Source of the DNA: Schmidtea polychroa | Lineage: Eukaryota | DNA: 64,000 nt | NCBI GenBank assembly: GCA_044892525.1 | Contig: CM097885.1 | Coordinates: 16,308,001 to 16,372,000 of the forward strand | Direction: 5' to 3' | Shown: positions 1,274 through 47,962 of the stretch, piece by piece | How positions within the stretch are numbered: position 1 is the stretch's first letter | Layout of the letters: every line of letters starts with the position of its first letter | The notes under the pieces: generated by a model | Seen by the model: the letters and a program-made list of their open reading frames with translations, nothing else | Databases searched by the model: none | Told to the model about the DNA's origin: nothing | Made by a program: the position numbers and the translations under genes

Positions 1274-1284
1274 GTCGACAAGCC

Positions 1285-2076: not shown

Positions 2077-2091
2077 TTTGTTTATTATAAA

Positions 2092-2670: not shown

Positions 2671-2692
2671 TACCATTTTTGATACCATTAAA

Positions 2693-3586: not shown

Positions 3587-3608
3587 ATACGAAGTTTCAA
3601 AATACAAA

Positions 3609-4073: not shown

Positions 4074-4121
4074 GGATTTTTACTATAAGGATTTTTACTA
4101 TATGAATTTACTACTAAAGAA

Positions 4122-4886: not shown

Positions 4887-4910
4887 AGATTCATTTTAAA
4901 TTATTAATAA

Positions 4911-5920: not shown

Positions 5921-5928
5921 TTATTAAA

Positions 5929-6525: not shown

Positions 6526-6619
6526 AATGGGTGTATTTTTAAAAAAGTAGATCAGGTTGCTATAGTTGCTTAAATTAATTGTCGACATTTTATTATTAAA
6601 AAATTAAATATCGTTGGTT

Positions 6620-7174: not shown

Positions 7175-7198
7175 TTTATAGTGTTAAAATTCTAATTC

Positions 7199-11128: not shown

Positions 11129-11136
11129 TGATGATA

Positions 11137-11580
11137 TTATTTTTTTTTATTTTCTCTTATATATTGCATGATTGATCTGGGTCCTCGTTTTACTTCTGCA
11201 ATTACATCGGTGTGATTGAAGTCATCCCAATTAAACTCTAGTTTTTCAGCTTTTTCAGTCATTGAGTTTGAATCAGAATCTTTTGCTTCAAGACCACAAT
11301 CTTCTATGTGTCTTAAGTAAAAAGATTTTATCCTCATCTTTTTTCCACATGCTGAACATTCGAATATTTCTCTGTTTTTAGGAACTCCAATACAATTTTT
11401 AAAATGTTTCTTATAACCTGAAAATAAATATCTATCCTTACATTTAGTACAGATTTTGGAATTAGTGTCATCTAGTGTGTTAGCTTTTATTAAATGGTCT
11501 TTTGATTTTTTATGAGATGTTAAAGCAGTTTTATTTTTAAAATATTTTTCACAAATTTCACAATTGAAAATAGCTTCCAT
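11137..11580 (-). CDS. Zn-finger protein, probably the N-terminus of pPolB split by a 1-nt frameshift
   Basis: Three CxxC...H fingers. One extra A in the A9 run (11140-11148) fuses ENKKK-IISS-MDDAIK in frame with pPolB. Confidence 0.75.
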   Translation of the reverse strand: MEAIFNCEICEKYFKNKTALTSHKKSKDHLIKANTLDDTNSKICTKCKDRYLFSGYKKHFKNCIGVPKNREIFECSACGKKMRIKSFYLRHIEDCGLEAKDSDSNSMTEKAEKLEFNWDDFNHTDVIAEVKRGPRSIMQYIRENKKK

Positions 11581-15400: not shown

Positions 15401-16928
15401 TTTTCAGGGTAATAATCTTAAGGAAGTCCTTGCTGACGCTACAGTGGTGTTCAAATTGATCAATGTGATTATATAGGTTTCTAAGGGTGATGGTGTTCAG
15501 GATAGATCTGCTTCCTTCCCCTTTGGGTCTACATTGGAGGCAGTCAATCAAAGAGTCGTAGGTTATAGCGATGTTGTGAATTTCTTGGGCGTGTGACCTA
15601 ATCCTATCAATATCAGTGGCAGAAATTTGTCCACAAAAAGAAGTATGGTGGCATCCACGACACTGTACTTTGCCCCGTAGATCAAAGTAGTATAATATTT
15701 CATTATTTATGTCTTTGGACATTGTATCTTTATTTATTATAGTTTTTCTCGTCTTTATGAGATCTAAGGTGGGGGGGGGTTTAAGAGTGTACGTTTTACC
15801 TCTAACCTCTAGGCTTTTTTGGAATTTTATGTCGTTTCTGTGGTGGATGGGAGTGGATGTGGTTGCGTACTTTGGTGTCTCTTTATCAGAGGGTATAGTG
15901 TCTTTCAGGTTTATAAGGTTTGGTGATTTACGTTCAGTGTTTTCGACAGGGATAAGCCTTTTAGGAATAGGGGACGATCTATCAAGGTCAATGTTTTCGG
16001 AGGAATAAAAGTTGTAGGTTTTCTTTTCTTGCCTAACAGGGGTTATGGTTGCAGAGTCATCTAGCGGTGATGGTCTAACTGAGGGATATATTTTGGGTTC
16101 CTCAATTGAGTCGGTAGGTAGGGTAAGGTTATAAGAGTTGGATTTCTCAGGCAGAGGAGGTGAGGGGTTGTTAGTAGGAAGGGCTAAGAGAGGGGCGTTT
16201 GAGGAAGGAGGTTCATTGGTAGAGCTTTGGTCAGAGGCACTGCTAGAGAGTACGACGTCATCACAGTCGGAGTTGAATAGATCGCTTGGGTATTCTGGAG
16301 GTCTAACATCCTCTCGGTCTGATATAAGGGATTCTATTGTGTCGTCAAAGTAGCAACTATAATGTGAGGTATCTATACTAATTTTGGATTGTTTCGAGGA
16401 GGAAGTGTCTATTTCAGAGTCATTGGGGATTGATGAGCTGTAGGTTGATGAGTTGTCCCCATCTATATTGGAAGAGACAAAATCGTATTTTGTGTTGAGA
16501 ACTTTTGTTCTCTGTACTTTCTTGAGCAAGTTTTCATTAGGGCGAATTTCTTTGGGAGCAAATGGGTTTGGAATTGGTTTTGAGTAGTGTGGTCTACGCG
16601 AGGTGTTGATGTTAGTCTTTTTGCTAGTGGACTGAATGTCAGGGTTGTTGCCTAGTTTTCTCGGTTGTCTTGGAAAATTGACAGATGTCTTAGGAGGTTC
16701 ATTAATCTCATGACTATTGGTTTCAATAAGGGCAGCATATCTATTATTTATTAGTCTATTATTCAGGTTGTTATTCTTCTTATGGGGGTAGGTGCTTTCA
16801 GGAAGAGTGGATACCATATCAGTGCTCAGGATACATTCAGGGGGTTCATCTCTGACAACGTTCACATTAGTGTCATAAATAATCTTTGAATTATCAAGCT
16901 TCCTTTCAACGTTGGTATTTAGTGGCAT
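12460..16928 (-). pseudogene. Retrotransposon polyprotein (Zn fingers, degenerate Ulp1-like protease, RT) with in-frame stops
   Basis: ORFs 14997-16928 and 12678-14834 share a frame and are separated by one TGA (ETT*WSQH). The frame continues past TAG 12678 to ~12460. No CCHC knuckle or PD..D endonuclease follows. Confidence 0.85.
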
Positions 16929-17312
16929 CTTGGGTAGTTCCCCCCGATTACTGTTATAAGCTTTATTTATTATATTATTATTAGATAAAATATTAGCAAA
17001 TAAATATGGGGTAAATTGTTTGTAATTTATTGATAGAATGTAAAAAAAATTTTTAATAATATAAAAGTTATTATTTCTATTATTATTTTTTAAATGACAG
17101 TGTAAATCCTTGAATAGTTTTCTAATTAAATTTTTTAGGATGTCATATGAATTTTGATTTATTTTGGTTATCGTATTATATAGGTTTGGTATTAAGTTAA
17201 TATTGAATGGCGTAGTTTCTTTAGTATTATAGGTATTTAATATATCTATTTAAATGAGGTAATTCGTGTTGAGGTCAATAAAAATGGATCTATATATTTG
17301 CGGGAGACTTTC

Positions 17313-18560
17313 TTATATTATCTTTTTAAGGAATATGAATTGTTTAGTCAATTCTCTGAAAAAATTATCGCCTATATTTCCTAGGTATATAAAGTTGACC
17401 TGAGTCGTGGTATTTGCTGGGTTCAGAAGGGGTTTATCGATGGAATGTGAAATAGGTTTAGAGCTAAGGCTGGTATTCTTATTAAGGTTTAAAATTTTGG
17501 CATACTTCATAGTTGGGACACGGTTGGGTGTAAGTTTATATGGGTCAATAGTTGGTCTAGTACTAACATTCTCTGGGAGTCGGCCTCTGGCCGACGAGCT
17601 GCGTAGCAGTATCCTTTCGTCCTCCGTCGGAGGACGAAAAATTTTTTTGCTTTCATAATTTCTGGAATAATTTTGGTCTTTTTTAAACAAATCTTTTTTA
17701 ATTAAATTATCGCCATTTTTAAATTTATTTAATTTGGTATTAATGTTATTATTATTTAAATTACTTTTTTCATTTAAAAAATATGATTTTATGTTTACGG
17801 ATTTATTCTTTTTAAGGTTTTTCTTTACTAGGTTTTTATAATTATTATTCTTAATTTTATTTTGATTAAAGATTTTATCTTTATTAAATTTCACGTGTTT
17901 ATTTCTATTATCATTTAAATATTTATGTTTATCAAGTAGTTCGTTTTCATAAAATGGGGATTTATTTCTACTTTTATTTTTATTATTATATATATTTAAA
18001 TAATTAATTCTTTTATTGGTATTATCTTCATTAAATAAAGAGTTATAATTTTCATTTAAATTATCATTACTATATATTACATTTTCATTAATTCTTTTAT
18101 TATTATGAAGTTCATTTAAATATTTATGTTTATCAAGTAGTTCGTTTTCATAAAATGGGGATTTATTTCTACTTTTATTTTTATTATCATATACATTCAA
18201 ATAATTAATTCTTTTATTGGTATTATTTTCATTAAATAAAGAGTTATAATTTTCATTTAAATTATCATTACTATATATTACATTTTCATTGGTTCTTTTA
18301 TTATTATGAAGTTCATTTAAGTAATCATTATTATAATGCATTATATTTTCATTAATTCTATTATTAGTATGAGATTCACTTAAATAATTATTTCTATTAT
18401 ACATTACATTACTATTGAAATTAAAGTTAGAATTGTAAAGATAATTCTGATCATTAGTTACCTTCTTTTCCCATGTGTCCTTTATTCGAAATAAGGTGTT
18501 TATGAATTTATTGTGTTCATTTTGGTTGATAGGCATGCCTCTGCATTGGGGCATAACCAA
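17313..18560 (-). CDS. Asn-rich ORF upstream of the RT ORF (possible ORF1) with a 201-nt tandem duplication
   Basis: 415 open codons in very AT-rich DNA; a 67-aa unit is repeated twice (~17911-18320). Confidence 0.5.
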   Translation of the reverse strand: MVMPQCRGMPINQNEHNKFINTLFRIKDTWEKKVTNDQNYLYNSNFNFNSNVMYNRNNYLSESHTNNRINENIMHYNNDYLNELHNNKRTNENVIYSNDNLNENYNSLFNENNTNKRINYLNVYDNKNKSRNKSPFYENELLDKHKYLNELHNNKRINENVIYSNDNLNENYNSLFNEDNTNKRINYLNIYNNKNKSRNKSPFYENELLDKHKYLNDNRNKHVKFNKDKIFNQNKIKNNNYKNLVKKNLKKNKSVNIKSYFLNEKSNLNNNNINTKLNKFKNGDNLIKKDLFKKDQNYSRNYESKKIFRPPTEDERILLRSSSARGRLPENVSTRPTIDPYKLTPNRVPTMKYAKILNLNKNTSLSSKPISHSIDKPLLNPANTTTQVNFIYLGNIGDNFFRELTKQFIFLKKII

Positions 18561-27374: not shown

Positions 27375-29069
27375 ATGTTTGCAAGCGTATGGGAATTGAT
27401 GAAGAGGAATAAATTTGAATTTGATAATGAAGTCAGCAGTGAATTGATATGCAGAATTTGCAAGTGTTTAATGATAAAAGCTTGCCATGCTCCTTGCGGT
27501 TGTCGCTTTTGTTCTGATTGCATTGAACATTATTTGGATGGAAAAGATAAATTCTGTCCAGGAGCAGCAAAACATTGTAGAAAGAAAATGATAAATTTTA
27601 TTAAGGATGTTTCGGAAGATCATGCAGCCAATTTAAGGATTTCAGAAGTGATAGTGAGATGCCCAATGCAAAATTGTCAATTCAAAGACGAATTAGAGGT
27701 GATGGAGAGCCACATGAGAACATGCAACAAGCAACCAATAAAATGTCCATTCAATAGAATCGGATGCGAAATGAATGAGGTGGATAAGGATGAAATGAAA
27801 GTCCATCTCATTGAGAACACTGAAGGCCATAGCAAATTATTGATCGATCAGATCAGTAATTTATGCAATGAAATGCAATCAATGAGAGACGAGAATGTGA
27901 CATTGCGTAATGAAATTATCAATATCAATGTAAAATTGTATTTGTAATTAATTTTATTGATATTTGTGATTGTAGGTGAAACTGGGCAATCTTGAAAAGA
28001 AAGAGAAAGAGAACAGAGATGAAATAGAAGAATTGAATGAGGAAATGGTGGCATTGAAGAATGAGAATCGCTCATTGAGAATGGAGATGGAGACAAATAT
28101 TGGATCAATCAATCAAGTTTGATTATTGATTTGATTTATTATTGATTTGTTATTGATGCAAAGCAGGTCAGACAGCAAATTGAGGCGATTGGATCAAAAT
28201 GTCAACAGCAAATTGATGATATGAAAGAGAAAGGCGAGCGGCGGCTGCAACAGGGGAATGAAAAGGTGATTTATTGATTTATTGAAATGTTTGAATTTGA
28301 GGTTCAGTTGCAGCTTGAAATGGCAAAATGCGCCAATGAAATTCGGCAGAATGAAACAAAATATCAACAGCAAATTGATGATATGAAAGAGAAATGCGAG
28401 CAGCGGCTGCAACAGGGGAATGAAAAGGTGATTTATTGATTTATTGAAATGTTTGAATTTGAGATTCAGCTGCAGATTGAAATGGCGAAATGCGCCAATG
28501 AAATTCGGCAGATTGAATCAAAATGTCAACAGCAAATTGATGAGATGAAAGAGAAATGCGAGCAGCGGCTGCAACAGGGGAATGAAAAGGTGATTTATTG
28601 ATTTATTGTAATATTTGAATTTGAGATTCAGTTGCAGATTGAAATGGCGAAATGCGCCAATGAAATACGGCAGATTGAAACAAAATTAGCAAATGAAAAA
28701 TATATAAATTATGGATTTTTTGAATGGCAAATCGATAAATTTTCGCAACAAAAGAGATATGAAAATATTTACAGCGAGGCATTTTATTCCGGGCCAATCG
28801 GTTACAAAATGTGCTTGTGGGTGAGGATTGGGGGTGATTGGGTTGATGTTGGTTTCTGTTTGATGCGTGGGGCAAATGATGAGCAATTGGATTGGCCGTT
28901 CAATCAATCCGTAACAATCGATGTGATCGATCCAGCAAATGGCAGCATTTATATGAGCAAGTCAAGGAAATATTCAGATTGGCCTGATGCAGCCAGATGG
29001 GGGAAACCTTCAGATGATAGAAATATATACCAAATCTCGTATACCAAACTTCTCGTATACCAAATATAA
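27375..29069 (+). CDS. Host TRAF-like gene (RING, TRAF Zn finger, coiled-coil exons, MATH domain truncated at the C-terminus)
   Basis: RING CRICKC...CGCRFCSDC...CP; VRCP...C...H...C finger; MATH FEWQI...YSEAFYSGPIGYKMCL...LMRG..DEQLDWPF; short GT-AG introns. Confidence 0.92.
28190..28690 (+). repeat. Tandem 162-nt exon+intron units in the TRAF coiled coil
   Basis: Donor GT at 28266, 28428 and 28590; 42-nt intron plus 120-nt exon per unit. Confidence 0.9.
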
Positions 29070-29278: not shown

Positions 29279-32200
29279 TTAGTCCGATAAAATGACATCA
29301 TCAATGTCAGTAACATCATCATTATTTATAATTCTTGGACTGTCCTGATCATCGAAAGATGGGCTTTCTCCACCAAAAAGCGGTCCAATTTCTTCATGAG
29401 TAAATACCTGGCCAGCATCAGTTTCCTCAATTCTTGGACTGTCCTGATCATCGAAAGATGGGCTTTCTCCACCAAAAAGCGGTCCAATTTCTTCATGAGT
29501 AAATACCTGGCCAGCATCAGTTTCCTCAAATCCTAAATAATGTCCATATGCCAGACTGGTATTAGGCCCCACCCATAGTCTCTTGTCATCGTTGTTCGAC
29601 AAGGCTATCTTCCTATTCTTGAAAGTAAAGAGCTGATGGTTTCTAGTACCTATTCTCGTTTGTGGCACCGTATATACTACGCTGTTGTTGTAGCAGTCTA
29701 AATAAGACTGGTGCCCTATCTCAGTATTACCAAGCTGAACTCCCTTAGCCCTAAGTGTTGCCTTATCTCCTAACAAACTATAACACTTAGGGCGCAAGAA
29801 CACCCATTCCTTATAACCAAGCCCTTTACTTTCATCCTTAAATTTCCCTATCACAGAATCCAAACTCTTTGAATACAAAGGATGAGCAGGATCATAATTA
29901 CTAGTGTCTAGAAGATTATCACGAATCATTGCCGGCAAAAGAGTGTCAAGCTTACAGTGCTTTATCTCTAAGAAAAAGGAGTCGGTGTCGCCGGCAACGA
30001 TATTTATATCACAGTTAAATTCATTTCTATATTTTGCCAATTCTATATACTGTAACTGGTACATCCTCAGTTTAGACAGGTCTAGCACAGATTGGCCAAT
30101 GAAGCTAGGCCTGTCTAAACATATAGAATCCTTATTTAGATGAGCTGCAATCAGATCATCATCAATTCTGATAGATTTTCTGAATGTAGGTTTTGAGGCA
30201 TATACAATCATCTTTTCAGCTGAATTGCATAACCTCAAATTCATCCGTTTTTTAAGGTTTTCCACGGATTTCCCATACAGACTATTATTAAATAATTTAT
30301 ATAAATCTCTATGCAGCTCGCATGTAGAATTTGAGCGCAAATTAGTATTAGTTGATATGTAATCTTTAAAAATAGGTGCATGCTTAAATTTAATTGCCCT
30401 ATGTACATTTTTAATTAAAGCCCCCAATTCAATATACAACTTGAGAAGTCGCCAATGAAGAACATGGTTCTTCTTCGGCCAATGCGTGAGCATCAGCTTC
30501 TCAACTTTTGAATCTGGCGGGCACATTTTTTCCGGAGCAATCGGAAAATCATTCAAAAAATCATGCAAGCAATCAGGGATATCGATATCAACCTCCATAG
30601 TATAGCCATATGGAAGGTTATCAATATCAGCATTCATACATTCATACAAGACAGAATCAAGGTCATCATACACCCATTCAAAATCACCATACGGAAGATT
30701 TTGGCTTAAGGCCCAACCATACAAGTTGTTTATATCTATATACAAGAGTTCTGTGTCTTCAGAACTTACAACATAATGTTTGTTAACAAATGTTAACCCA
30801 CCCCGTATCCCTCCTTCATAGAAATTAAACATTTCCATGTCCTGTAAAAGTTCAATGGGTTCCTTTAATGTCATAAGCGCTGAGCCCCATGACATACCGG
30901 GAATACCATAAAAATTTAGAGGCTCAAGACCATTGTATGCAATGGCCTTTTCACGGAATTGTGTAAAATAATCTGCGAGGAGAAACACATCAAGTTTAAG
31001 GTATGTTAACATATAGTCTAACATATTGTTGCAATTTTGTTGAGTCCAAATAACTTGGGCTAATTCATATTCATCATTAGACACAGAATCCCAAATAGGA
31101 GGCAATTCAAGAGTTGATTCCAGGACCTCAAGAGATGTAGCGAAGTCATAAGGGAAGATACCTTTTGCTCGAACAATTGCGCCATCAAAAACAGAAGAAG
31201 TTAAAGGCAGATCGGAAAGAGTCTTAACAGCTTTTGCAAGTGATGAATTAACAAACTGCATGCTGTCAATAAAACGAACAGGCAGTTTGTTAATGTACGC
31301 GATGAGAGAGATAAATTTTTCCGTAGTGTTTGGAATAATATTCAATTCCCAAGAAGGAAAATTATTCAAACCATACTTCAAAATATGATGGAGGTCATAC
31401 CCCCTCAAATTGTGAAATACAACAGGTAACTGTCTCTGAATTCTGCGAGACACATTACATTTCCTACAGGCAGCACCAAGATACTTACCTGTGAAGGGAC
31501 AATGGTACCTAACTCTATCTCTAATAAATTTTTTACAAAGATAGCAGGTCCTGGAATTATAAAAGGCACGATCTTCAGCGAAAGACAAGGTTTGCATAGG
31601 CTTATTACCGTTAATTTCGTAATATGGTAGGACAATTGTGACAGCAATTTCCTCCACCTTATGCAAGAAAGACAACACGCAATCCTCACCAACAAACTCA
31701 TAATAAAATCTAGTTTTGTTATAATTGTTAATTAGTAACATGCCTGCTGTTATTGGCATGTGTTTTTGATGGTGGGTGATATCCTCAGGTAAAATCGACT
31801 CAAAATCGGCATATATCACGAATGGCGGGGTTACTGTTTTTGCATAGTTTGAGAATATTAAATTTTTCTCTTTCGGTAATGTATATAAAGTAGAACCTAT
31901 TTGATTCTTACGGCATAGGTCTACATGAATATCATAAGCGCTCCTATGTCTGAAGCCATTAAGGCAATGTGGGCACTATTTGACGCGAATCCAAAGGTGA
32001 CAGGAGCTATTTGGGTGTGAATTCATAAGTTTTTGAAGATCAAAAACTGCGGTGTAATGAAAATTATCACCGTCTTCTAATAATAATAAATATATGGGTT
32101 TACCACCTATAACCTTAGATCGGTGAATAATATCTAACTGGGGATGATGAGGGATATAATCTTCATTGTTGATATAATCTTCATTGTTGATAGGTTTGGC

Positions 32201-33480
32201 TGGTTTATTTCTATATATTAAAACGTTAATGGCTAAGTTCAGTTCACGGTTTTTGCGTTCGAATTTAGGTATGTTACTTAATCTCATCGGGCAATCACTA
32301 ATGGGGTCAAAATTAATTTCATCCAAATAATTTTGGTAAGCACTAACTCGATGCATATTTCTGCGTATAACATCACGCTTTAAGAGGGCTAGAACACTAT
32401 ATATAAAACACATATCATCATCTGTGTTCTGGATATTGACTATTGCGTGTTTAGACTTTAACGCTGTCGGGGTGGGAATATAACTATGTCCAGCTAACCT
32501 ATTCATAATCTTATACTTATTTATTATGAAGTCAATTTCTTTTATTTTAACAACCCGCCATCCGCTACCTAAATATGTGAATTTTTCTATCTTATTATTT
32601 AATTTAGTGACGCCATTGATTAAAAAATTTTCTGAAAAAACTTCGGCGTTATTGGAGAAAAAATTATCTCGGATTTCGCCATCTTTCTCAAATTGTATGA
32701 GAACCGTGAACTGAATTTTAACGGGCCCCATACCGTTCATTTCTGATACTAGTTTTTGAATAATTTTTGGTGTTATTGCTATCTGTACTAAGGCGTCTTT
32801 CTCCACGTCAAACCTTAGATTTTTTCTAGCCCCCTTAAAATCTATTTCTATTTCTGGCTCGTCGTCTATATCGACTGAACCGCCTATTTGATTATTTAGT
32901 ATATTATTTAGGATATTATTTAGGTTATTATCTATTTCATCACCACCATAATTAACTTTAACAATTTTAGATGGAACACAAGACCCCGGACTAACAGCAG
33001 GCCGTTTTTTATTTTTAATTAGATTATTATTCACATTATTATTTACATTATTATTTACATTTTGTGCTGTGCTATTCACATTTTTATATACAGTTTTATT
33101 TACAGTTTTGATATGTTCTGTATTATTTACATTTTGTGCTGTGCTATTCACATTTTTATTTTTATAAACAGTTTTATTTACAGTTTTGATATGTTTTGTA
33201 TTATTTACATTTTGTGCGTGCTATTCACATTTTTATTTTTATAAACAGTTTTATTTACAGTTTTGATATGTTCAGAATTATTTAACTTATTAAAAAGTTT
33301 CTTTTTATTTAAAGTAAACTGATTTAGATGTTTACTATGTATATTATAAAAATCCTTATATTTTATAGGTTGGGAAGTCTGGCATAGTGGACATAAATAA
33401 TATTTGAGTCCATAGAATTTATGCCCATAGTATTTTTTCATGTTTTTGTGACATACTTTAGTATGCCCAGTCGAAGACAT
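29279..33480 (-). pseudogene. pPolB of element B with one frameshift (~33218) and one in-frame TAG (31976-31978)
   Basis: Three ORF-track pieces join. A 1-nt deletion in one copy of an N-terminal repeat (AGCACGCAC vs AGCACAGCAC) links the Zn-finger ORF; IRVK*CPHCL reads on into YADFE, YIDINNLYG, KLFNNSLYGK and GDTDS. Confidence 0.93.
29330..29529. repeat. Perfect 99-nt tandem duplication in the pPolB tail
   Basis: EETDAGQVFTHEEIGPLFGGESPSFDDQDSPRI twice, identical at the nucleotide level. Confidence 0.95.
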
Positions 33481-33692
33481 GCAATACCGAGGATATAATC
33501 GGCCTATTAATAAATTTATTTAATAATTATCTAAATATTGTTGTAATATAGAATGTTTAATATCTTTATTAACAATTGTTAGTAGTTATTCAGTTTTTTA
33601 TTAGACAATAATTATAAAACTGAATAACTATTAACAATTATTAATAAAGGAAATATTATTAGCAGTTAGATCAAAGACATGGAAATTTAAAG

Positions 33693-33774
<82 letters not shown>

Positions 33775-33778
33775 TATT

Positions 33779-33835
<57 letters not shown>

Positions 33836-33888
33836 AGAGAGATGTAGTTGCATGCTGACTGCAAACTACTGGTAGAAATTATGGGTCA

Positions 33889-34038
<150 letters not shown>

Positions 34039-34392
34039 TCTAAACTTAAATTATAACTTTCTCAAGAATAGTTCAAAATTTTCTTCTTTTTAAATTTTCA
34101 TCATCATTTCATATAAATTTTCATCATCTGTTCATATAAATTTTCTTCATATAATTTTTCAAATAAAATTGTTCAGGATTTTTCAAATAAATTTTCATCA
34201 TCTGTTCATATAAATTTTCTTCATCTGTTCATATAAATTATCTTCATATAAATTTTCTTCATATAAATTTAAATCGTCAATTACAAATTTACAGCATTTT
34301 TTAAAATAATTTAAAGAAAGTTATAATTTAAGTTTATAAATAATTTATAAATAATTATGATTAATAAAAAATATTATTCATGAAAAAAAAAA

Positions 34393-35096
34393 CTAACATT
34401 TAGACTCTGAATCAGAGTCTGTTTCGTCCTCAGTGAGGATATTTCCAAAGATTTTATGGGCATCTCCAATAAAAGTTGAGGCATAATCTGCTTCCTCCCC
34501 AATATCTGTGGGGGCATCAATTAACATTGTTTCAATAGGTGCAGCATAAATTGGAGCATCATCCTCAGAGAGGGCATACCGAATAGGGGCATCATTCAAA
34601 ACATTTGAAGCTTCTAAATCATTTTTAAAAATTACATATAAAAATAATAAAAACTTACGAGTATTTTCTATCATCGCATGTTCGATGAAAAACTCATTGT
34701 CGATGTGGTTAGGAATCATTTGACTATGTCCTAAAAAAGGTTTTTAATTTAATACAATAATAATAATAAATTACTTGATAAATCATCATCATCCTCACTA
34801 ATGACTATTGTATCGTCATTGTCGCTAATAATTACTATTGTATCGTCATTGTCGCTAATAATTATAGGATCTTCATCATCGCTCACCATTATAACGTCTA
34901 AATAATAATAATAATATTAATAAATAAAAATAAAATTACCATATGTACAATTTAAATTAAATCCATCTTCATTTTCAGTAACTTCGTACCACAAATCATC
35001 TATAAAATAAATATATAAAAATAAATAAAATAATAATATTTTACCATTGCTGCCAGCCATCATACATCTCAGAATATTATTTTCTTGTCCTTCCAT
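34393..35096 (-). CDS. Spliced acidic protein with four tandem SUMO-interacting-motif-like repeats (at least 5 exons)
   Basis: ATG 35096; phase-1 GT-AG introns 35000-35044, 34898-34939, 34731-34774 and 34614-34658 give one frame containing VIMVSDDED, IIISDNDD, IVIISDNDD and IVISEDDDD. Confidence 0.8.
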
Positions 35097-35525
35097 TTTG
35101 TAAAAATTTTAAATTAATTGTGACGAATTTGGAAATTGCAAATGTTTATAAAGAGATTTAAATTTTCCTGTCCCAGCCAATAAGATTTCGGTATACACAC
35201 ATAGAAACTTAAATATTTTACTCTGTTAGCCAATCACATCGCATCTACATGTGCCTTGTTAATCACACTGTTTCCATGTGACTGTCTTTATTAGTCAGTT
35301 CTTTGTTAACATGCACTGTGCATGCACGGAGCATGTGATGGCTTTATGATAAGTTAATTAAAAATAATTAATAAGTTAATAATAACAATAAAATTAAAGT
35401 CTTTCTTATTAAATAATAATAAAAGTCATTCTTATTAAATAATAATAAAAGTCTTTCTTATTAAATAATAATAATAAAAGTCTTTCTTATTAAATAACAA
35501 CAACAAAGCATACACTAAACATTTA

Positions 35526-35940
35526 TTAAACATGAAACTTTTTGTACAACAACCACGCCAAACAGTGTTGACCACATGTTTGGGTCAAGGGATTTTGAAA
35601 CATAGTTTTATTATACACAATAGGTTTCCCCATTGTTTGTAGTTTTGATATCAACAAAGCCGGGTAATAAAAACCCATAGGATCGAACACGAATATATTA
35701 CCAGGTTTCATATATATAGCTATCCAATGTTCTCCACCAAGATGAGACGATTGAGTATTGACGATTATTGCTTGATTATTGCTCAAATATGGAATTTTAT
35801 CAAGAGGAAAAACTCCAACAAATTCATTTCCCAATATCTGTTTTCCAATTCTCAGTACCTGAACAGAACTACTTAAATAAATCCAGAGTATAAAAAAAAA
35901 CAACTTACTCCATGACAACTTTTTGTGTTTCAATATACAT
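35526..35940 (-). CDS. Adenain-like protease of element B, two exons
   Basis: GEHWIA, FVFDPMG, QNPLTQTCGQHC. ATG at 35940 abuts the capsid stop; the GTAAGT...TAG intron 35869-35908 joins MD|SVQVLR. Confidence 0.88.
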
Positions 35941-37154
35941 TTATACCAACACAGCTCTATTTGCAGTAATTTGAACTTCATTTTCAAATACTCCATATAT
36001 TATAACATGTACTGGTTCAGTAATAGCTTTTGCAAACTTTATATCCAGTCGTAAATTTCCATTTTGAGGTAATTGACTTTGATTTAAATCAAAATCAGGG
36101 GCTAAAACAAATGTAAAAAATGGGTATTTGCTTTTAAAATCCTCTAGAGTTATTCCGCAATTCAAATTTTTATCTAAATAACCCAGATTTCTAACAATAC
36201 TCTGCATATATGTCGCACAGTCATTCTCGAAATCTTGAATATATGTTTCTCTATAATCAGTATTTTTCGACAAAGTCAATGATGTAACACCAAAGTTTTT
36301 GAAAATTGAGCTGGACGCAGTATATGATCCATTATATTGTGCTTCACTTTGAAATGTTATCAGAATAAAATTAGGCATTCTTCTGTCACCAAATATTTGT
36401 TCTTTATAGAATGATGAAGCACCTTTAGCAATAGCAAATTGTACAATTTCCTTTGTTTTTAATGGATAAATTGCATGTTTTGAATTAAGACCCAATTGAT
36501 GACCTGCTAATACTGAGGGGTCTACTCGAACTCTTCTGACCAATAATTTTGCATCAACTAATTGACATATTGGTGTAGTAGTTGCACTAGTAAGAGATAA
36601 TGCAGAATCAGACCTTTTCAGTCTAATATGTACATTAACTCCCGGTAGTAAATATTTCGGTTGATCCATAAAATCAAGTTGTAATGATGAGCACATGGTG
36701 AAAACCTTTGAGCCTTTTACTACTTTTTTCTTTCATCATCACTGCCATAGCCCATAGGAGTAAGACATGTATTTTTAGTATCGGAATTGTAATTTAAAAT
36801 AGTTTCTATTAATGCCTTGTGAATGAATGTATTATTTCCACCCTCAATCTTGATATTATTAAATCCCAACACTGCATCTTTAAAAAGAGTATGAAACAGG
36901 AAATTGTTCGGTATTACATCTGCATTGGCATCCAAAACTTTTCTATCTTTATCTACAACCTTAATCTGAACAGTCAATAAAGTATCGTTCAAATCTAAAT
37001 ATTCGGTTTGTGAACCATTAATATAAAACTCGATATCATTTCTACTATCGGTAATTGAATTCATAGGAAAAACTTCGTCAAATGCCCCAAATTCTATTAC
37101 AGCCTGGGGCGACGGTCTATCAAATATACATAATTCAGATTTACCACAAATCAT
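35941..37154 (-). pseudogene. Major capsid protein (double jelly roll) with a 1-nt frameshift at run 36724-36729
   Basis: CGKSELCIFDRP, IEFYI...YLDLNDTLL, LQLDFMDQPKYLLPGV, GNLRLDIKFAKA. One extra A gives RKKVVKGSKVFTMC and joins the two ORFs. Confidence 0.9.
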
Positions 37155-37513
37155 TTTGCAAATATAGTTCCATGTCCTTTCATTCTTTTGTTTATACGTG
37201 ATATTCCATGTCTTTTACGTTTTGGAGCTGGAGCTGGAGCTGGAGGTTTTTGAAACATACCTGCAACCCCTGGTAAAACTTTCCCTAATTCAGCTAAAGT
37301 ATTTGTTTTTAGAGATGGTAATATTTTCTGTTCATTCATAATAACATCTTTTGCAGTCTTCATACCAAAACTACCAATACGTTTAAGAATAGGCAGGGCA
37401 AATCTACCAATTGTTCTCAACCATCCTGATCCGTACTGTTTACCAATAAATTATGGTAATTCACCGCCAGATTGGCTACCACTATACATACTAATAATAT
37501 CAGAATTAGCCAT
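37151..37513 (-). pseudogene. Conserved Polinton core protein with amphipathic helix; in-frame TAA at 37451-37453
   Basis: MANSDIISMYSGSQSGGELP*FIGKQYGSGWLRTIGRFALPILK; QxGG and QxGxG motifs; basic tail. Confidence 0.75.
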
Positions 37514-38549
37514 TTATTTTACGAAAATGTAATGTCAAATGAGTTTTTGAATCTTTTGGAAAGTTTATAAGTTTTCCACTATCATCACGAATATTTATTT
37601 CTATATTGTTTATACATGAACTTGCTATTGGTAAATACATGGGATTATCGATATTTATATTGACAACTTCATCATGTTCATATTTTCCAATCCATACCGA
37701 TTTCAAAAGAGGAACACTGGAATCACCAACAATTATGGGTTCGATAATGTTAGTATATATGAACATTTGTTGATGATGTTCTAGTATTCTTGGTTTGCGT
37801 ATACCAGTCGATTTTTCTCGATATTTTTGCCTATCTAATCCAAGTGAATTTGCCAAATTTTTATCAAATGTAACTTCGCAAATATCCTCATTCAAACTGA
37901 AGGTAAACATCAAATCTTTCACAATTTCCAAATTTTTAAATATGTGTGAACAATTGAACTTTAAATATTTAAGTAAATCATCAAGTTTATCAAAATATAA
38001 TTCATCAGCAAAGGTAAATGATTCTTCAACTTCATCATTATACGACACAGATATTTTGATTTCTTCTTTCATTACACTGTTTGCTTCAAATAGATTAAAA
38101 CGTAATAAATACTCGGTCTCCGTAACAATATTTTTCAACTTATTGCAACCCATTCGTTTGGCATCTTCAATAGTTTCGAATGTTATTGTAAACGGTTTAA
38201 AATCACAACTGATATTTAATCCATCCTTGTAAAACATATAGCAATGCGAATCTAATATTTGATTCGGAATATGATATGTTTTATCATAATTACTAATAAC
38301 AAAGATACCGCTACATGTTTTCACAATATTCCTTCTGAAATCAATCTTACAATGACTATAAAATGGGAATGTGTTGTACACAAATGTAAAATCTTGCAGT
38401 GCAACTTCCCAGTCACCATTTAAAGAAATCGGATTCTGGAGATTGACCATAAATTTACTGGCTTGATTGTCTGGATGAATTAATGGGCAAGTATTGCTCG
38501 GTAAAATAGTATAAAAATTCACTTTACTAGGTCTTTTGCTGATATCCAT
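37506..38549 (-). CDS. Minor capsid protein (penton) of element B
   Basis: FYTILPSN...NQASKFMVNL...GDWEVAL; MFIYTNIIEPIIVGD..VPLL; IEINIRDDSGKLINF...LTLHFR. Confidence 0.9.
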   Translation of the reverse strand: MDISKRPSKVNFYTILPSNTCPLIHPDNQASKFMVNLQNPISLNGDWEVALQDFTFVYNTFPFYSHCKIDFRRNIVKTCSGIFVISNYDKTYHIPNQILDSHCYMFYKDGLNISCDFKPFTITFETIEDAKRMGCNKLKNIVTETEYLLRFNLFEANSVMKEEIKISVSYNDEVEESFTFADELYFDKLDDLLKYLKFNCSHIFKNLEIVKDLMFTFSLNEDICEVTFDKNLANSLGLDRQKYREKSTGIRKPRILEHHQQMFIYTNIIEPIIVGDSSVPLLKSVWIGKYEHDEVVNINIDNPMYLPIASSCINNIEINIRDDSGKLINFPKDSKTHLTLHFRKING

Positions 38550-39151
38550 GACGGGTTTTGATAACCATGCCATTTGACATAGTATTGTTTATCCTTACCG
38601 ACCTTTTTCGTTTTCAATATCTTTTGAATTCTAAATACTTTTGGGGGAGGAATGACTTGTAATTCCTGCTCATAAAATTTCCCTTGTACAATATTATTAT
38701 CATTATCTTTGATGACATACATTACAGGATTCTGTTTAGTATTTATTTTTGAAATTACAAAGACTTCATCACTCCAATTTGTATCAAAATTTTTAATAAA
38801 TGGTGATGCACTAATTTTACTAATTCTAACATGGTCACCGACTTTATATTTAGGTTTTGCAATTTTTACAGATTTCTTAGAAGTCAATGATGTTTTTGAT
38901 GTAATATCAACAGGTCTCAATCCATTCAGTCCTCGATGTGACGAATGATTATAACTTGTTATTATTTTCGGTAAAGCATTTACCCATTTTTTATTACCTT
39001 GATGCACGAACAATTTCTTTAATCTATCTCTCAATGTTCGATTAAATCTTTCAACATGGGCAGCTTTGTATTGAGAATGTACCGAGTAGTGATTTATTTT
39101 CAGTTTATCGAGGATTTGCTTAACTTTGCTATTGTAGAATTCTTTACTTAA

Positions 39152-39246
<95 letters not shown>

Positions 39247-39634
39247 CTAAATCTGTTTGCAAGTTATTAGGATGTCCATCTTTAAATAAAATATTAATTG
39301 CCTTGGACATTTCTTCTGCAGATTTTGCCTTGACTGGTATTGCTCGTGCAAACCTGCTGTATACATTAATACATGTTAAAATATATTTATTTCCATTGTT
39401 AATTTTCGAATAAGGTATCATCTCCATCAAATCCATTTGCCATAAATCGTCAATACCAAATGTTTTATATGCTCTTGTTGGAAATCTTTTCCGCATTGGT
39501 TTGTTCAAACTGTACGCAAGCTGATCTGATAACCACTTCTGGGTTTCTTTTTTCGAATTCTGAACTCTTTTCTTTAATTTTGCCACTCCACCGAAACCGG
39601 TTTCGTCTTCTGGGTTCGTCCAAATCTTCTCCAT
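38519..39634 (-). CDS. rve integrase with C-terminal chromodomain, interrupted by an (ATT)n intron-like insert
   Basis: WQMDL, LQTDLG[insert]KEF, HVERFNRTLR; chromodomain FRIQKILKTK...YYVKWHGY...SWI; likely start MEKIW at 39634. Confidence 0.92.
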
Positions 39635-40241: not shown

Positions 40242-40868
40242 TCAACTTTGTTTATAAACCATGGCACCTTTTGGGTTGAAAATATCGGTTTTTACTCGTA
40301 AATCATCGGGACATTGTTGCGTGAAATCAAGAAATATATATCCATGAGGTATTTTTGTAGCATCTTGAAATGCACTGATAAGAAAATTACGATTGTTAGG
40401 GTATGCTTGACGTGCAAGAAAATCAATCACTGTTGCATCTCTAGGATTCTTGAAAATAACTAAATATTGTACATTTAAATTACGTGTTCGATGTGCCCCG
40501 CCTTGATGAAATAGATTTTGTGTTATGAAAATAACTGTTACACCGACATGTCTGCTGATCTTTGTAAATAAATTATTAAAATCTTTTTCTTTATTAGCTT
40601 CTTGATACAGATCATCGATAATAATGACATCACCTTTCTTTAATCGGCTGGACCAGTTTTTATCGAATCCCTTTACTATTTTCATGTTTTTTAATTTACA
40701 GAAACTTGATTGAGTTAATCCATGTTCTTCATCAGCACCCCTATGCCAATAAATCCTGTTGAATTTTTATTTGAATAAATTTGATTTTAGTAATTTACAA
40801 ACAAATAATGTTTTTCCACTACCACTCGGACCAACGATTTGGTATACTGCATCATTTCTTAATTCCAT
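40242..40868 (-). pseudogene. A32-like packaging ATPase of element B; in-frame TAA at 40767-40769
   Basis: GPSGSGKT, IIIDDL, SRH, ITQN and FKNPRD lie in one frame across the stop. Confidence 0.92.
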
Positions 40869-40971
40869 TTCAAAAATTTTATAAATATATGTGTATTTGT
40901 TTATATTCAATGATTTAATGAACTCGTGCTCAATTTGTATATAAAGACTAATTTTCATAAATGATTTAATA

Positions 40972-41409
40972 ATGTTAGCAAATATAAATTATCGAGGAAA
41001 TTTTGATGTATCGAATATGAGGTTCCCACCAGGGAAACCCCAGCAAATTATCGATAGAAGCGGGAAATATCCGATAATATTTTTCAAGACTGGTAAATGT
41101 AGAATCATGGGATGTAAGAAACCTTTGGATATTAATAAATTACAATATCGAATAAATAATATTATAATCCAATCAATTACCGTTACTATGGATATGGGAC
41201 ATAGTATCAATTTATATAACATGTCGAAAAAATGTGATTGTATGTTTGAACCGGAATTGTTTCCGGCACTAAGACTATTAAAATATAACCCTATATGTGT
41301 CAACGTGTTTGCTAGTGGAAAGGTTGTCATGCTGGGGTTGAGAAATTTGGAGTATAGAGAATTTGTTGACAATGTTCGAAATGAGATAATTTCATTGGTC
41401 GATTTCTAA
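40972..41409 (+). CDS. Divergent TATA-binding protein (TBP)-like protein
   Basis: Two TBP repeats: IIFFKTGKCRIMGCK (cf. LIFSSGKMVCTGAK) and IQSITVTMD...FEPELFPAL...VNVFASGKVVMLG (cf. YEPELFPGL...LIFVSGKVVLTG). Confidence 0.88.
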   Translation: MLANINYRGNFDVSNMRFPPGKPQQIIDRSGKYPIIFFKTGKCRIMGCKKPLDINKLQYRINNIIIQSITVTMDMGHSINLYNMSKKCDCMFEPELFPALRLLKYNPICVNVFASGKVVMLGLRNLEYREFVDNVRNEIISLVDF

Positions 41410-43248: not shown

Positions 43249-43764
43249 TTATTTAAAAAATCTGGATAAAACATACAAAATAGCAACACCAGTTGCAAGT
43301 TTTATATAGTTTTTAAATTTTCTTTTCTGATCATCTATTTCCTTCGCATTTCTGGCGAGTTGATTTAGTACTCCCCATCCGCCATTGGCTTCAATCCATG
43401 GTTGAAACTTTGACTTGATTATCTAGAAAATAAATATTAATAAAATATAGATTATAAAAGTATTACTTCTTGAGACCACTGATAATAGTGCTCGGAGTCC
43501 CATAGACTTTTTTCAATTATTATCTTCATATAAGCGAACCCTACTAGTATTCGGGTCCACTTCATCTCCTCGTCGCATAGGCAGTTAAAAATCCTATTAA
43601 AATAGAATTTTTTTGGTTTCGAGACAATAGGAATTGATCACATCCTCAAAATCAATGTGATTACTTTCTATAATCTTTTCAGTCCGATCGACCAGAAAAC
43701 TGAGGCTTTCCATAATATTCCTGTTGACGAGTTCTCTTAAAAGATTTTCCATAAAATGAGACAT
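43249..43764 (-). pseudogene. Bcl-2 family protein (two exons; 1-nt frameshift at run 43608-43614)
   Basis: BH1-like LCDEEMKWTRILVGFAY, BH2 FQPWIEANGGW, tail anchor YIKLATGVAILYVLSRFFK*; phase-0 intron 43423-43466. Absent from the ORF track. Confidence 0.85.
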
Positions 43765-43869
43765 TTTTACAATAATTTAAAATATGATGTTTTATTTATA
43801 CTAATACCGTATGATTTTGATTGGTTGATAAACTATAAATGTAAAAGAAAGGTTTTGATTTGATACACC

Positions 43870-44370
43870 ATGAAAACTATATTCATATTGCTAATTATTA
43901 TAACGAGTGTGTGCTCACACAATACAACAATAACAGTGGAGTCCTTTAATAAATCAATATGTGTTTGTCCGAATACAGCCAAGTTGATGAATATTTTATA
44001 TATTCTCGACAAACCAAAATGGTCAAAGCATCCAGGAAAAAGAATATCTCAAAGATTGGAGAATTTAGAAAACAGTTATGAACTATCATTTGAATATATA
44101 CAAAATATAAAAATTAAATTGATTGATCATATTGAGGTTTTCAATAACTCTATTGTTGAAAATAAAAAGAATATGAAAATTATTGATAAGAAGCATGATT
44201 ATTTATTAAAAAAGATTGAATTATTATTAAGAGAAATTCAAACAATCAAAGGATCAATTGAATATCTGAAAATCAATTCAACGTTATCAATTTCAAACAA
44301 TATTGCTGCGAATAGTAGTACATCAATATTTAGTTTACCTTTGTTAATTTTACATTATTTTATTGTTTAA
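43870..44370 (+). CDS. Putative secreted or GPI-anchored coiled-coil glycoprotein
   Basis: Signal-like MKTIFILLIIITSVCS, several NxS/T sites, heptad region, Ser/Asn-rich spacer and a terminal hydrophobic tail. Confidence 0.6.
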   Translation: MKTIFILLIIITSVCSHNTTITVESFNKSICVCPNTAKLMNILYILDKPKWSKHPGKRISQRLENLENSYELSFEYIQNIKIKLIDHIEVFNNSIVENKKNMKIIDKKHDYLLKKIELLLREIQTIKGSIEYLKINSTLSISNNIAANSSTSIFSLPLLILHYFIV

Positions 44371-44507
44371 ATAAATGTATGTTTTGTTGATTTGTGAGTT
44401 GTTGAGCGTGACCAGTACCCTTGTGAGCATTACCCATAGAGGGAGAAAATATTTTGTCGGATAAACTCGGGGCAGTACCCTTGCGTACAATACCCAACAA
44501 TAATAAT

Positions 44508-44651
<144 letters not shown>

Positions 44652-44744
44652 TTAAGTCTTACCTGATTGGGTGAATGATAAATCACCCGCAAATTTCTTC
44701 ATAAAATTTGCTATAAATTTGCTATAAATTAGTGTCTGACTAAA

Positions 44745-45334
44745 AAATTAATAACTTTTATACCACTAGTGATAAAAATTATTTCTATGGCTCAAAAGAT
44801 TTGTCTTCGTCTGGTCTTCAAAATGAACTATAAATTGTTAAAATATTTTGAGATTTAGACTAAGTTTTTGGCTCACGAAAAGTAGGACTCCGCTAGCACA
44901 GTTAATAATATTTTTGAAAAATAATAATAATTTACCTTAAAATGACTAAAATGACTCTGACCAAAACCTTAATAACTTTTTTATTATTAGTGATAAAAAT
45001 TATTTCTATGGCTCAAAGGATAGATCTCCGTCTGGTCTTCAAAATGAACTATGAAATTTTAAAAGATTTTAAGTTTCAGACTAAGTTTTGGGGTCACGAA
45101 AAGTAGGACTCCGCTAGCACAGTTAATAATATTTTTGAAAAATAATAATAATTTTTGATGAGTCATCGGATGAGTCATTGTCTTTGTTCTAGACGAGTGA
45201 TGAGTCATCGGATGACTCATTGTCTTTGTTCTAAAGTTGACCTTGAAAAAAAAATTTTTAAAAATTTTTTCCGGCCGGGGGGGGGGGTACTGTGCTAGCG
45301 GAGTCCTGTTTTAGCGGTGCCCAAACCACCTACT
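44745..45334. repeat. Right terminal region of Polinton B: 221-nt-period duplication, AP-1 repeats and tip
   Basis: Two copies containing AGTAGGACTCCGCTAGCACAGT (44881, 45102), an inverted copy at 45289-45307, and terminal CCTACT. Confidence 0.85.
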
Positions 45335-47962
45335 AATTTGCACTCACTACAAGCAATTTGAACAAACATACACTTCAGCAGTCCCAACACAGATTTTAAA
45401 TCTAACTCTGCTGTGCTTTACAAACTCTTTTACTAGAATTAACCATAGCAACATAAAAGTGGCCATCAGCTAAAGGTGAGCCTCTCACAAGGACTGATAA
45501 TGTCCGACGTGCCTCAAGATTTACATAAGTATCATTGAAGATGTAGTGTCTTATTTAATCTGTCCCTATCATCATTATGTTTACTTCACCTATCTATTTG
45601 TCGTTACTTGATACCTCAAAATTCTGAATTTGGATTTTTACTTAAATAAATGAAGATTTGAAGTATGATAGGTGATACAAAGTGGGAAAACAATCTTGTG
45701 AAAGGGAGCAGAGTAAATCCGACACATGCCTTCTATAAGCAGTTCGTGGATCCAAGTAAGTACTGGACAATTATAATATGCAGGTGCATGCTCACTTCTT
45801 GATGGTATTCAAACCCTTGATAGAGTACCAACATTGATTGCTCAATGGGTTTCAAGCGGTATGCCACTTGCTTGTATTTTGAGTTACCCTGGAAACACCT
45901 CGAAAGGTAAAATGTGTGCTAACCGACCAAAATTAAAAATCGAATTGAAATGTGAAAGACAGGGCAGATACAGATGAGATACTATGAAAGATCATGGTGA
46001 GAATGGATTGATCAGGACTATGTTATGAAAGGGTCGAAATGCGAGAAAACTTACAAAAACAGAAAATAATTAATTAATTAATTTGTTGGAACTTAGGAGT
46101 GTGTCAATTAAATGTGCTAGGGTTACTTATGGATTTTGAATCGACTCCTTCCTAAACGGCTTCATGACTATTTTACTTTATGCCATCTGCGTATCCATGG
46201 TAACAACCATGTTGGTCCTGTACACAATGTCTGGAAATCAATGACCAGGTGAGCTCTACTATTAAAACTACTCCTCATTGTATTTTCATTTTCGGGTTCT
46301 GGACTGCTGATCGAAGGTCTTATGTCATGGTTCATTAGCTATTCCTTTCTTAGATTATTGTCATTTTTCATTAACTCCCAAAACAGGTTTACTCTTAACT
46401 ATTCTGTTTAAAAGATTTTGCCACACTCGCGACACGATGATTTCGATTAGTTCCCATGGTTAAACCCTCTCCGTCTCATCGCTGCCTGATTATTCTTGGA
46501 TAAAAAAAATTTATAAAACTATATAAAATTGTAAATAGCAATTAATCATAAAATAATAATAAAAATATAATTTTATATAATAAAATCAATATATAATATT
46601 GACAATTTATCAGTAGTTTATTAATGATATATTTAAAATCGAAAATTAAGAATCTTATATATAAAACTTTTAATATAATTGTTTGTTTACCAACTTTTCT
46701 TTAAATTAATTTTAACTAGATAGCAGCACGTTTTTGTTTCTAAAACATTTACATCATGATCTCATTAATTTACTCGCTATTAACCATCTAAATAAACAAT
46801 TTATATATGATTTTTATTCTGAATAAAATGTAAAAAACATGCATTATTGATTATAACAAAATCAAAATTTAAAGTTTTCATCGATTACTGCAAGTTCTTT
46901 GGTAAAAGTTTTCATCAGTTCTTTCTTGTGCTTTTCTAAGCCAGCTTCAAGCAAGTTACTAATTTCTTTTTCTATTTCAAAAAATGCCGTATTTCCTTTC
47001 ATTAGTGATTCGCTAAAATCATGACTTTCCTGGAGGCTTTGCAGTCGAATGTCAGCACAATCTTGCTTCAAATTAATATCAACTTCATAGAATGACTTGC
47101 TTCCTCAAATCGCTTCTAAATCTCTACATCTTTAGGACTTATTGATTCTAGAACCCTACCTTTATCTCGATGAGTTTCTGATCCATGTAATCATTGACAT
47201 CGCGATTTTGACCAACTTGATCCGTTAAGTTCTGAATGTCTTAACAATGTTACGCATATTCCTCCTGCAATATCAGGCAAATTGTCTCATTTTCATTCAA
47301 ATTCTTGACAGCTATTCGATTCTCGAATTCCAACAATTTTATATCACTTTTATATCAACTTAATAACTTCGGTTTATATCAATTTACCCATACAAAAACT
47401 TCAGAGTTCCTCATTAAATCTTCGCTTTGTTTTATGTGTTCCTGTAATTTCTCTCGTCTGATTTGGGTCTTCTCTTCAATAACAGATATCAAGTTTGATA
47501 TATAAGGTCCCAAATGACCATCGTAATTCAGCAGATATTCGAAATTGAAATTCGTGATTTCTTTAGGAATTTCTTTTTTGACTAAGTCTAGAAACTGGAA
47601 TGAGGGGTCAATTAAATACGAAGTACGACAAAATTTAAGTCTATTTGAAATTATGATGTCAATTTTGTTTTTATATCCTACACAATTAATATTAGCTCCA
47701 ATAGATATTGCCAAACATTTTATATCATATAAATAATGATTATTATAATGATAATACAATAATCATTATAATATTATAATAACAAAAAAAACATGGTCAA
47801 GATGAAAGGATTTCGTTATCAAGTCAGTCCTTATTGTTGTATGAAAAATACATAAAATTATATAAAGAATAGCCAAGATTAACGAGAAAGTGATGCTAAG
47901 GAAGCAGTTAAAAATGTGCTATCGATGGAATAAAATTATTGTGGAATTTTGCCATAAAATAA

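Follow-up and report, generated by a model that had tools for sequence, protein, structure and literature searches.

A putative spliced, SIM-bearing leader on the protein-primed DNA polymerase of a planarian Polinton

Our analysis suggests that the protein-primed polymerase B (pPolB) of a Polinton in Schmidtea polychroa is preceded by a SIM-bearing leader, which would be spliced to it through a predicted fifth intron. Judged from the sequence, this is the best explanation of the whole, with a probability of roughly 0.6. The window, that is, the entire stretch of 64,000 nucleotides that was analysed, holds the leader exons on its minus strand, between the protease and pPolB frames of the element. 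RNA-type junctions, SIM-like arrays that persist even in strongly diverged alleles, a W-x-x-V motif without variation, the swapping of leaders and a donor that doubles as a stop are new here.

Results

The host element

The element is a Polinton of the pPolB type, with a protein-primed PolB, a TP-vOTU region, an integrase, a protease and inverted repeats. The upstream neighbour of the leader is its protease:

35526..35996, minus strand: adenovirus-type protease (PF00770, above cut-off)

All 150 scored copies of this protease are 98-100% identical, and it served as the anchor for collecting alleles. For the pattern at the start of exon 3, 88 matches were counted, while its reversed control had none; the element family is young and abundant. 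The integrase was recognised by an rve match (PF00665, E 1.9e-5) and a chromodomain match (PF00385, E 3e-4), both below the curated cut-off. No Pfam match was obtained for 35941-38573 or 40242-40685, which, by position, are putatively the capsid region and packaging genes; a Walker A-like motif lies in 40767-40988. With regard to the terminal inverted repeat, the sequence at 44391-45342 of the window is found again, in inverted orientation, on the far side of pPolB in L273, L275, L277 and L278, and the window copy has no left repeat.

Exon-intron structure of the leader

The leader and its putative promoter comprise the following features:

35144..35234, minus strand: putative promoter block, two CCAAT boxes and TATA-like TTTATAAAC
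35045..35096, minus strand: exon 1, 52 nt, start codon at 35096, N-x-L-R motif common to divergent alleles
35000..35044, minus strand: intron 1, 45 nt, phase 1, predicted (48-49 nt in type B alleles)
34940..34999, minus strand: exon 2, 60 nt, W-x-x-V-T motif at 34991-34977
34898..34939, minus strand: intron 2, 42 nt, phase 1, contains a stop
34775..34897, minus strand: exon 3, 123 nt, four SIM-like units
34731..34774, minus strand: intron 3, 44 nt, phase 1, removal seen in the RNA-like run X1
34659..34730, minus strand: exon 4, 72 nt
34614..34658, minus strand: intron 4, 45 nt, phase 1, removal seen in the RNA-like run X1
34398..34613, minus strand: exon 5 up to its donor, acidic repeats and terminal S-D-S-E-S-K

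Introns 1-4 are all GT..AG, all in phase 1 and 89-96% A+T, and exons 1-5 form a single open frame, of 175 aa when intron 5 is left unspliced. If the next donor is not used, exon 5 extends over 221 nt to 34393 and the frame closes with a Cys and a stop at 34395-34393. The first-pass annotation had described four phase-1 introns of 42-45 nt that splice into one frame, with CCAAT boxes and a TATA-like element upstream, and all of this was confirmed. Its five-exon gene holds with regard to the exons and the frame, but a gene ending at 34393 is most likely wrong, since the donor at 34397 has been conserved and finds its partner in the acceptor at 33504.

Four intron-like segments lie within the 704 nt of the leader, compared with 14 across the whole window on both strands. 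As four were reached in only 1 of 360 sliding windows, and even two in 0 of 2000 shuffles, the cluster is not due to chance. Introns 1 and 4 (35044-35000 and 34658-34614) are in frame and stop-free in the window allele. Retention of either would add 15 hydrophobic residues; the stop-free state is not conserved in type B alleles.

The CCAAT boxes are located at 35234-35230 and 35181-35177, and the TATA-like TTTATAAAC at 35152-35144. The TATA-like block was found in 51 of 61 sampled sequences (the window plus L111-L170, picked by hand); among those 51, the proximal CCAAT box is kept in 42 and the distal one in 48. The sole RNA-like contig across the 5' end starts at 35316, upstream of both CCAAT boxes.

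Coding and splicing evidence

The five exons are real coding exons. Among 30 close copies, GT..AG is retained in 119 of 120 introns, the frame is open in 27 copies, and exon indels are multiples of 3 except in one copy. An allele of 78% identity, L032, keeps all four introns in phase 1 despite their different lengths, and its exons 1-2 show 12 synonymous and 5 non-synonymous changes. In comparison with this allele, dN/dS is about 0.03 for exons 1 and 2; values of 0.47 and 0.53 were obtained for exons 3 and 5. The first 50 aligned codons, a stretch that takes in SIM-like unit 1, gave 0.08. The proposal of a spliced coding sequence carried by a Polinton is upheld, and the sequence is under selection.

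RNA-type evidence comes from the contigs of a single run, X1, whose RNA kind was guessed, and these contigs best match L027/L028-type copies rather than the window copy. At intron 4, an X1 joint of depth 17.2 skips exactly 45 nt, GT..AG. At intron 3, the 29 loose letters ahead of exon 4 in an X1 contig correspond to the end of exon 3, and another X1 contig retains this intron. Relative to L028, a 440-nt X1 contig lacks 45 nt in the stretch that holds introns 1-2, so that one of the two introns, probably intron 2, was removed. Three further runs (X2-X4) span intron 4, with no exon 4-5 joint listed, and runs X6-X8 gave no match to the exons. RNA junctions, which had been suggested as a check of the gene, were accordingly seen for the exact removal of introns 3 and 4 in X1.

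Junction with the polymerase polyprotein

Downstream of exon 5, the predicted gene continues as follows:

33504..34397, minus strand: predicted intron 5, 894 nt, phase 1, GTTAGT..TAG, AAT runs
33205..33503, minus strand: predicted start of exon 6, Cys/His zinc-finger-like, first Cys codon completed by the splice
31976..33220, minus strand: linker, terminal-protein domain and vOTU protease, vOTU Cys and His in place
29279..31975, minus strand: protein-primed DNA polymerase B, exonuclease and palm (PF03175, E 1.3e-27)

The donor-like GTTAGT near 34397, noted at the outset as a hint that the gene may continue, proved to be conserved and to have an acceptor at 33504. The donor motif was present in 54 of the 61 sampled sequences, with GT in all 54 (36 GTAAG, 17 GTTAG and 1 GTAAA). 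Exon 6 was found in 51 of the 61; its acceptor AG is kept in 48 of these 51 and is directly followed by GC or GT in 50, and 47 sequences have both the donor and exon 6. As T is joined to GC or GT across the junction, splicing would create a Cys codon. The AG acceptor and the Cys-making junction were first seen in 19 of 21 sequences and then in the 61-sequence sample, where the acceptor is conserved over exon-6 identities of 46-100%. Only 17 of the 51 exon-6 sequences have a Met within their first 12 residues.

The exon 6 region shows 41% identity over 68 aa to the N-terminus of an outside pPolB, P0004, which has a Cys where the unspliced frame has a Gly. By eye, a Cys also occupies the junction position in five metagenome relatives (L182, L183, L188, L189 and L190). 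Intron 5, whose counterparts in other copies measure 607-1621 nt, holds five open phase-1 acceptors, and the four besides 33504 yield microsatellite or repeat frames. A sister allele class has the same junction, T/GTAAG..AG/GT (slashes mark the splice sites), with a different leader, and in divergent alleles behind near-identical proteases the last exon ends at the same place, at T/GTAAG without a stop. The AT-rich introns of the host SUMO genes, at 40-49 nt, are of the size class of the leader introns; at one donor, GTTAG in one of these genes corresponds to GTAAA in its paralogue. The RNA-like coverage in X1 ends about 60 nt short of the intron 5 donor. Taken together, the sequence comparisons make it highly probable that exons 1-5 are the spliced leader of the Polinton polymerase. 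GTTAG donors occur in the A/B context and also within the type C context (L120, L121 and L149), where they perhaps had a second origin.

A model of 32830-31979 built from 20 sequences reached a pLDDT of 84.4, compared with 32 for single-sequence folding. In model comparisons, the terminal-protein domain showed a little-finger/PAD-like fold (Y-family little finger, Z 8.7-8.0) and the vOTU part matched OTU domains (Z 6.8-6.0). The best viral match of the TP-vOTU part was an adintovirus protein (E 3.8e-16). The polymerase of the window copy is broken, with a frame break near 33.2 kb and an in-frame stop near 31.98 kb.

SIM-like units in exon 3

The SIM-like units of the window allele are:

34895, minus strand: SIM-like unit 1, VIMVSD, exon 3
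34868, minus strand: SIM-like unit 2, PIIISD, exon 3
34838, minus strand: SIM-like unit 3, IVIISD, exon 3
34811, minus strand: SIM-like unit 4, TIVISE, exon 3

Four tandem motifs of the form [VI]-[VI]-x-[VI]-S-D/E had been reported at this place. Four units are indeed present, but that exact form is found only in units 1 and 3, since unit 2 begins with P and unit 4 with T. When the published SIM-a, SIM-b and SIM-r patterns were applied (PMC3631770), the window allele gave one strict match, unit 1 to SIM-a, and three near-misses (p 0.19 against shuffles); patterns written after the motifs had been viewed were not relied on. Units 2-4 derive from a 30-nt tandem unit, and 3 of the 30 close copies have three units, one 30-nt repeat having been lost.

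Automatic modelling gave 35 leaders, of which 33 are in frame with all introns in phase 1 and 28 are distinct; these 28 are related to each other and their counts are not independent. Every one of the 28 has one or more matches to the published patterns and 23 have two or more; 23 of the 28 exceed their own shuffles at p<0.05. There were 67 matches in 4405 leader residues, against 5 in the 8098 residues of 22 other window ORFs. The exon slot of the matches is always the same, whatever their orientation: among alleles, a forward unit may take the place of a reverse one (an acidic run followed by V-V-F-I/L) and vice versa. The number of units varies by 30-nt repeats or by duplication of a whole exon plus intron.

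The leader is acidic, with 26% D+E and 3% K+R, and from this composition it may be disordered. If exons 1-5 are indeed the pPolB leader, binding to host SUMO is predicted as the rather more probable outcome. Degenerate SIM matches are frequently false (PMC8616421). No SIM-like motif was found in the listed part of the sister-class leader, nor any SIM in the first 200 aa of the outside pPolBs P0003 and P0004, which suggests that SIMs are dispensable for some pPolB. No RING family match was obtained for exons 1-3, exons 4-5, exon 6 or the TP-vOTU part.

The W-x-x-V-T motif in exon 2

The most conserved motif of the leader is not a SIM. W-x-x-V-T occurs in 54 of the 61 sampled sequences, and its W, V and T are the only invariant columns across 12 aligned alleles. 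N-x-L-R and L-N-V/C, on either side of it, are likewise conserved, and such conserved flanks would suit a small folded module. In the window, the W of exon 2 has E at +2, V at +3 and E at +5, with two acidic residues ahead of W and four within six residues after V; a comparable acidic motif is absent from the 8098 control residues.

Binders of the p62 PH domain present an acidic string, F or W, and V at +3, and in XPC and UVSSA positions +2 and +5 are both E (PMC5727438); the motif was compared with that one paper. The host has p62 PH domains and three intronless p62 genes. A complex prediction for the host p62 PH domain with a 30-aa exon-2 stretch, one third of which is intron-coded, scored 0.06, a value that weighs neither for nor against the pairing. 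From its sequence, W-x-x-V-T is a possible TFIIH p62 PH-binding motif.

Leader alleles and leader swapping

Far more divergent leader alleles sit behind near-identical proteases, and exons 3-5 vary freely in sequence and length among alleles. Leader and exon-6 classes are reassorted in L111-L170, where the type B leader occurs with two exon-6 classes, as does the VFDWYEVTEN leader. Crossovers between leader and polymerase alleles within intron 5 are likely, to judge from these sequences. The sister class, represented by L262, L263 and L266, has a similar promoter block, a three-exon leader and the same Cys-making junction; the protease of L263 is 94% identical.

When window 34393-35840 was compared with L032, 9 of 29 third positions were changed in exons 1-2, 9 of 174 intron sites (intron 2 being identical) and 6 of 98 third positions in the protease. 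The leader exons are thus more diverged than the introns and the protease (Fisher p 1.5e-4 and 1.0e-3), which may reflect constraint on the introns, conversion confined to the exons or evasion of small RNAs.

Discussion

Small upstream exons are already known from adenovirus, where the E2B pTP and polymerase mRNAs obtain their start codon from one that adds few residues. The predicted leader is alike in that its start codon comes from an upstream exon, but here it is long and motif-rich. In its domain order, TP-vOTU-EXO-PALM, the window element agrees with the pPolB of Polintons/Mavericks (adintoviruses), to which it is predicted to add a spliced acidic leader of 100-200 aa with SIM-like units; the paper describing that order makes no mention of SUMO, zinc or splicing (10.1101/2024.03.18.585575). 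Vertebrate Maverick genes have been described as intronless (PMC8097293), whereas introns 3 and 4 of this leader are removed in X1, the link to pPolB being inferred. The leader introns reduce the likeness to the vertebrate description, not the membership in the Polintons. A nematode Polinton study contains no relevant passage on introns (10.1101/2023.08.22.554363).

As a short-linear-motif protein directly upstream of PolB, in an element that also encodes a Bcl2 homologue, the leader resembles the Oncoid genes, which are usually located upstream of PolB (PMC8502044) and are defined by LxCxE (PMC8502044; 10.1101/2024.03.25.586562). It differs in its predicted splice fusion to PolB and in that the window allele has no LxCxE, the Oncoid motif looked for together with a CK2 site. 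The motif is present in 3 of the 28 leader models, all of type C; there, the residues after L-x-C-x-E are acidic and rich in Ser, as in the Oncoid signature. The main text of PMC8502044 is silent on SUMO. With RNF4 and RNF111 (PMC3631770) and with ICP0 and K-Rta (PMC8616421), the leader shares close hydrophobic cores, acidic flanks and a Ser adjacent to the core. In contrast to RNF4 and the viral STUbLs, it has no RING, and the enzymes linked to it are an OTU-type protease and a polymerase; on its sequence, it is not a STUbL. The p62-binding strings of XPC, UVSSA and TFIIE-alpha share with it the aromatic residue, V at +3 and acidic residues at +2 and +5 (PMC5727438), but in the window the acidic run before the aromatic residue is short and the motif sits in what is probably a viral polymerase leader.

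Homologue searches with the leader, which the first-pass annotation had also proposed, gave no genuine relative; the one match, in a clam, was rejected as a repeat artefact. The leader matched no PDB sequence and no Pfam family. Scans of viral contigs with single proteins returned no relatives, and an alignment query returned two distant ones. No SIM array was found upstream of pPolB in 82 outside loci; among the close ones, L182 alone has over 1 kb of sequence ahead of its zinc finger. No literature report of a SIM leader on pPolB was found, repeat databases and paper supplements (the genome maps of PMC8502044) being outside the scope of that search.

How might such a leader act? In the reading that we prefer, the host spliceosome would assemble a single mRNA that runs from the leader through the zinc finger, terminal protein and vOTU to the polymerase. 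Both the start codon and the Cys that is the first zinc ligand would come from the splice, which would make the polymerase dependent on the host spliceosome. Cleavage by the vOTU behind the terminal protein is a published hypothesis (10.1101/2024.03.18.585575); if the vOTU cuts there, the 5' ends of new genomes would keep the terminal protein together with the leader and the zinc finger. The SIM array could then bind, in cis, nuclear proteins that carry SUMO at the DNA end, in competition with factors that depend on SUMO for silencing or for the removal of adducts. This in-cis action is put forward tentatively, at somewhat less than even odds. Copies with a GTTAG donor, including the window copy, could release a leader-only form of 175 aa upon retention of intron 5. 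Given the Cys-stop of these copies and the 6 of 30 close copies without exon 6, the free leader may be a second product. We regard as speculative, and rather doubtful, the wider notion of a swappable cassette capping the DNA ends, with a SUMO array and a TFIIH motif that would shield and switch on every new genome in cis, a free decoy released through the donor that doubles as a stop, and alleles reshuffled through intron 5 in an arms race over piRNA and SUMO.

The initial interpretation was of a different kind: the product, of 175 aa, would be a protein of its own that works in trans, either as a SUMO sponge or against silencing. We judge this unlikely. Such a protein would be consistent with the Cys-stop that all 17 GTTAG donors give when unspliced, with the place upstream of PolB, typical of Oncoid genes (PMC8502044), and with the lack of exon 6 within 1.5 kb in the 6 copies just mentioned, one of which, L028, matches an RNA-like contig with 1 difference. 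Nevertheless, L027, which is near-identical to L028 across the part covered in X1, does possess exon 6. Moreover, the TGT-TAG stop is absent from 36 of the 54 donors (those with GTAAG), whose unspliced ends are variable tails of 3-50 aa, while donor, acceptor and splice-made Cys are conserved. A stand-alone sponge is therefore unsupported: as the only product it is unlikely, and as a second isoform, or from deleted copies without pPolB, it is plausible.

An equally unlikely reading places the weight on exon 2 and sees the leader as an acidic transcription or repair adaptor, whose W-x-E-V would bind the PH domain of TFIIH p62, the SIM-like units being secondary; together with the TBP-like protein of the element, it would switch on incoming genomes. 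The pattern of W, E at +2, V at +3 and E at +5, the frequency of W-x-x-V-T in the sample, the TBP-like ORF and the p62 PH domains of the host all fit this reading, which is compatible with the best explanation. The conserved flanks fit less well, as does the acidic distribution, with just two acidic residues before W and the acidic run after it. Least probable of all is a leader that merely gives the start codon and the Cys, in which case acidic repeats and SIM-like units would have arisen incidentally, as repeats expanded in a spacer that tolerates change. The SIM-less leader of the sister class, the freedom of exons 3-5 to vary, the single strict SIM of the window allele and the frequent falsity of degenerate matches (PMC8616421) agree with it, but at least one strict SIM is found in all 28 alleles, in the same exon slot and in either orientation, and dN/dS is 0.03 in exons 1-2 and 0.08 in the first 50 aligned codons. 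The SIM-centred reading has its own counterpoint in the dN/dS values, as the strongest selection falls on exons 1-2 (0.03), with exon 3 at 0.47.

In planarians, nuclear PIWI and H3K9me3 keep Polintons repressed (PMC8532177), and piRNA-guided silencing in flies requires SUMO (10.1101/533091). If the spliced SIM-bearing leader is real, an array at the terminal-protein end would be a counter-measure to host silencing on the element's own DNA. Calls of an intronless pPolB ORF in such hosts would then miss the start and a regulatory region of 100-200 aa.

Other features of the window and of related copies

At window 29050 the element borders on a TRAF-like gene (27375-29069), with the boundary falling within the MATH domain of that gene. 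The integrase frame of the element (38519-39634, minus strand) contains a long run of Ile residues encoded by repeated ATT. A TBP-like ORF (PF00352) was identified at 40972-41409 on the plus strand, as was an ORF at 43870-44370 on the same strand with hydrophobic ends and a coiled-coil-like middle. A Bcl-2-like gene at 43249-43776 on the minus strand has a predicted 44-nt intron at 43466-43423; all 46 of its PDB sequence matches are Bcl-xL/Bcl-2 (best E 0.068), and it has no Pfam match.

Internally deleted copies with the leader and without pPolB are L002, L005, L006, L018, L023 and L028; an inversion in L002-type copies was considered and dropped in favour of internal deletions. L270-L271 is a deleted copy that still holds the integrase, the capsid region and both ends. 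Elsewhere in the window, 311-11580 is another Polinton, of a different kind, whose scanned ORFs contain no SIM-like array, and 12678-18554 is a non-LTR retrotransposon (RVT_1). The host has two SUMO genes, each split by three tiny introns, and at least 150 ubiquitin-like domains, many of them in long ORFs.
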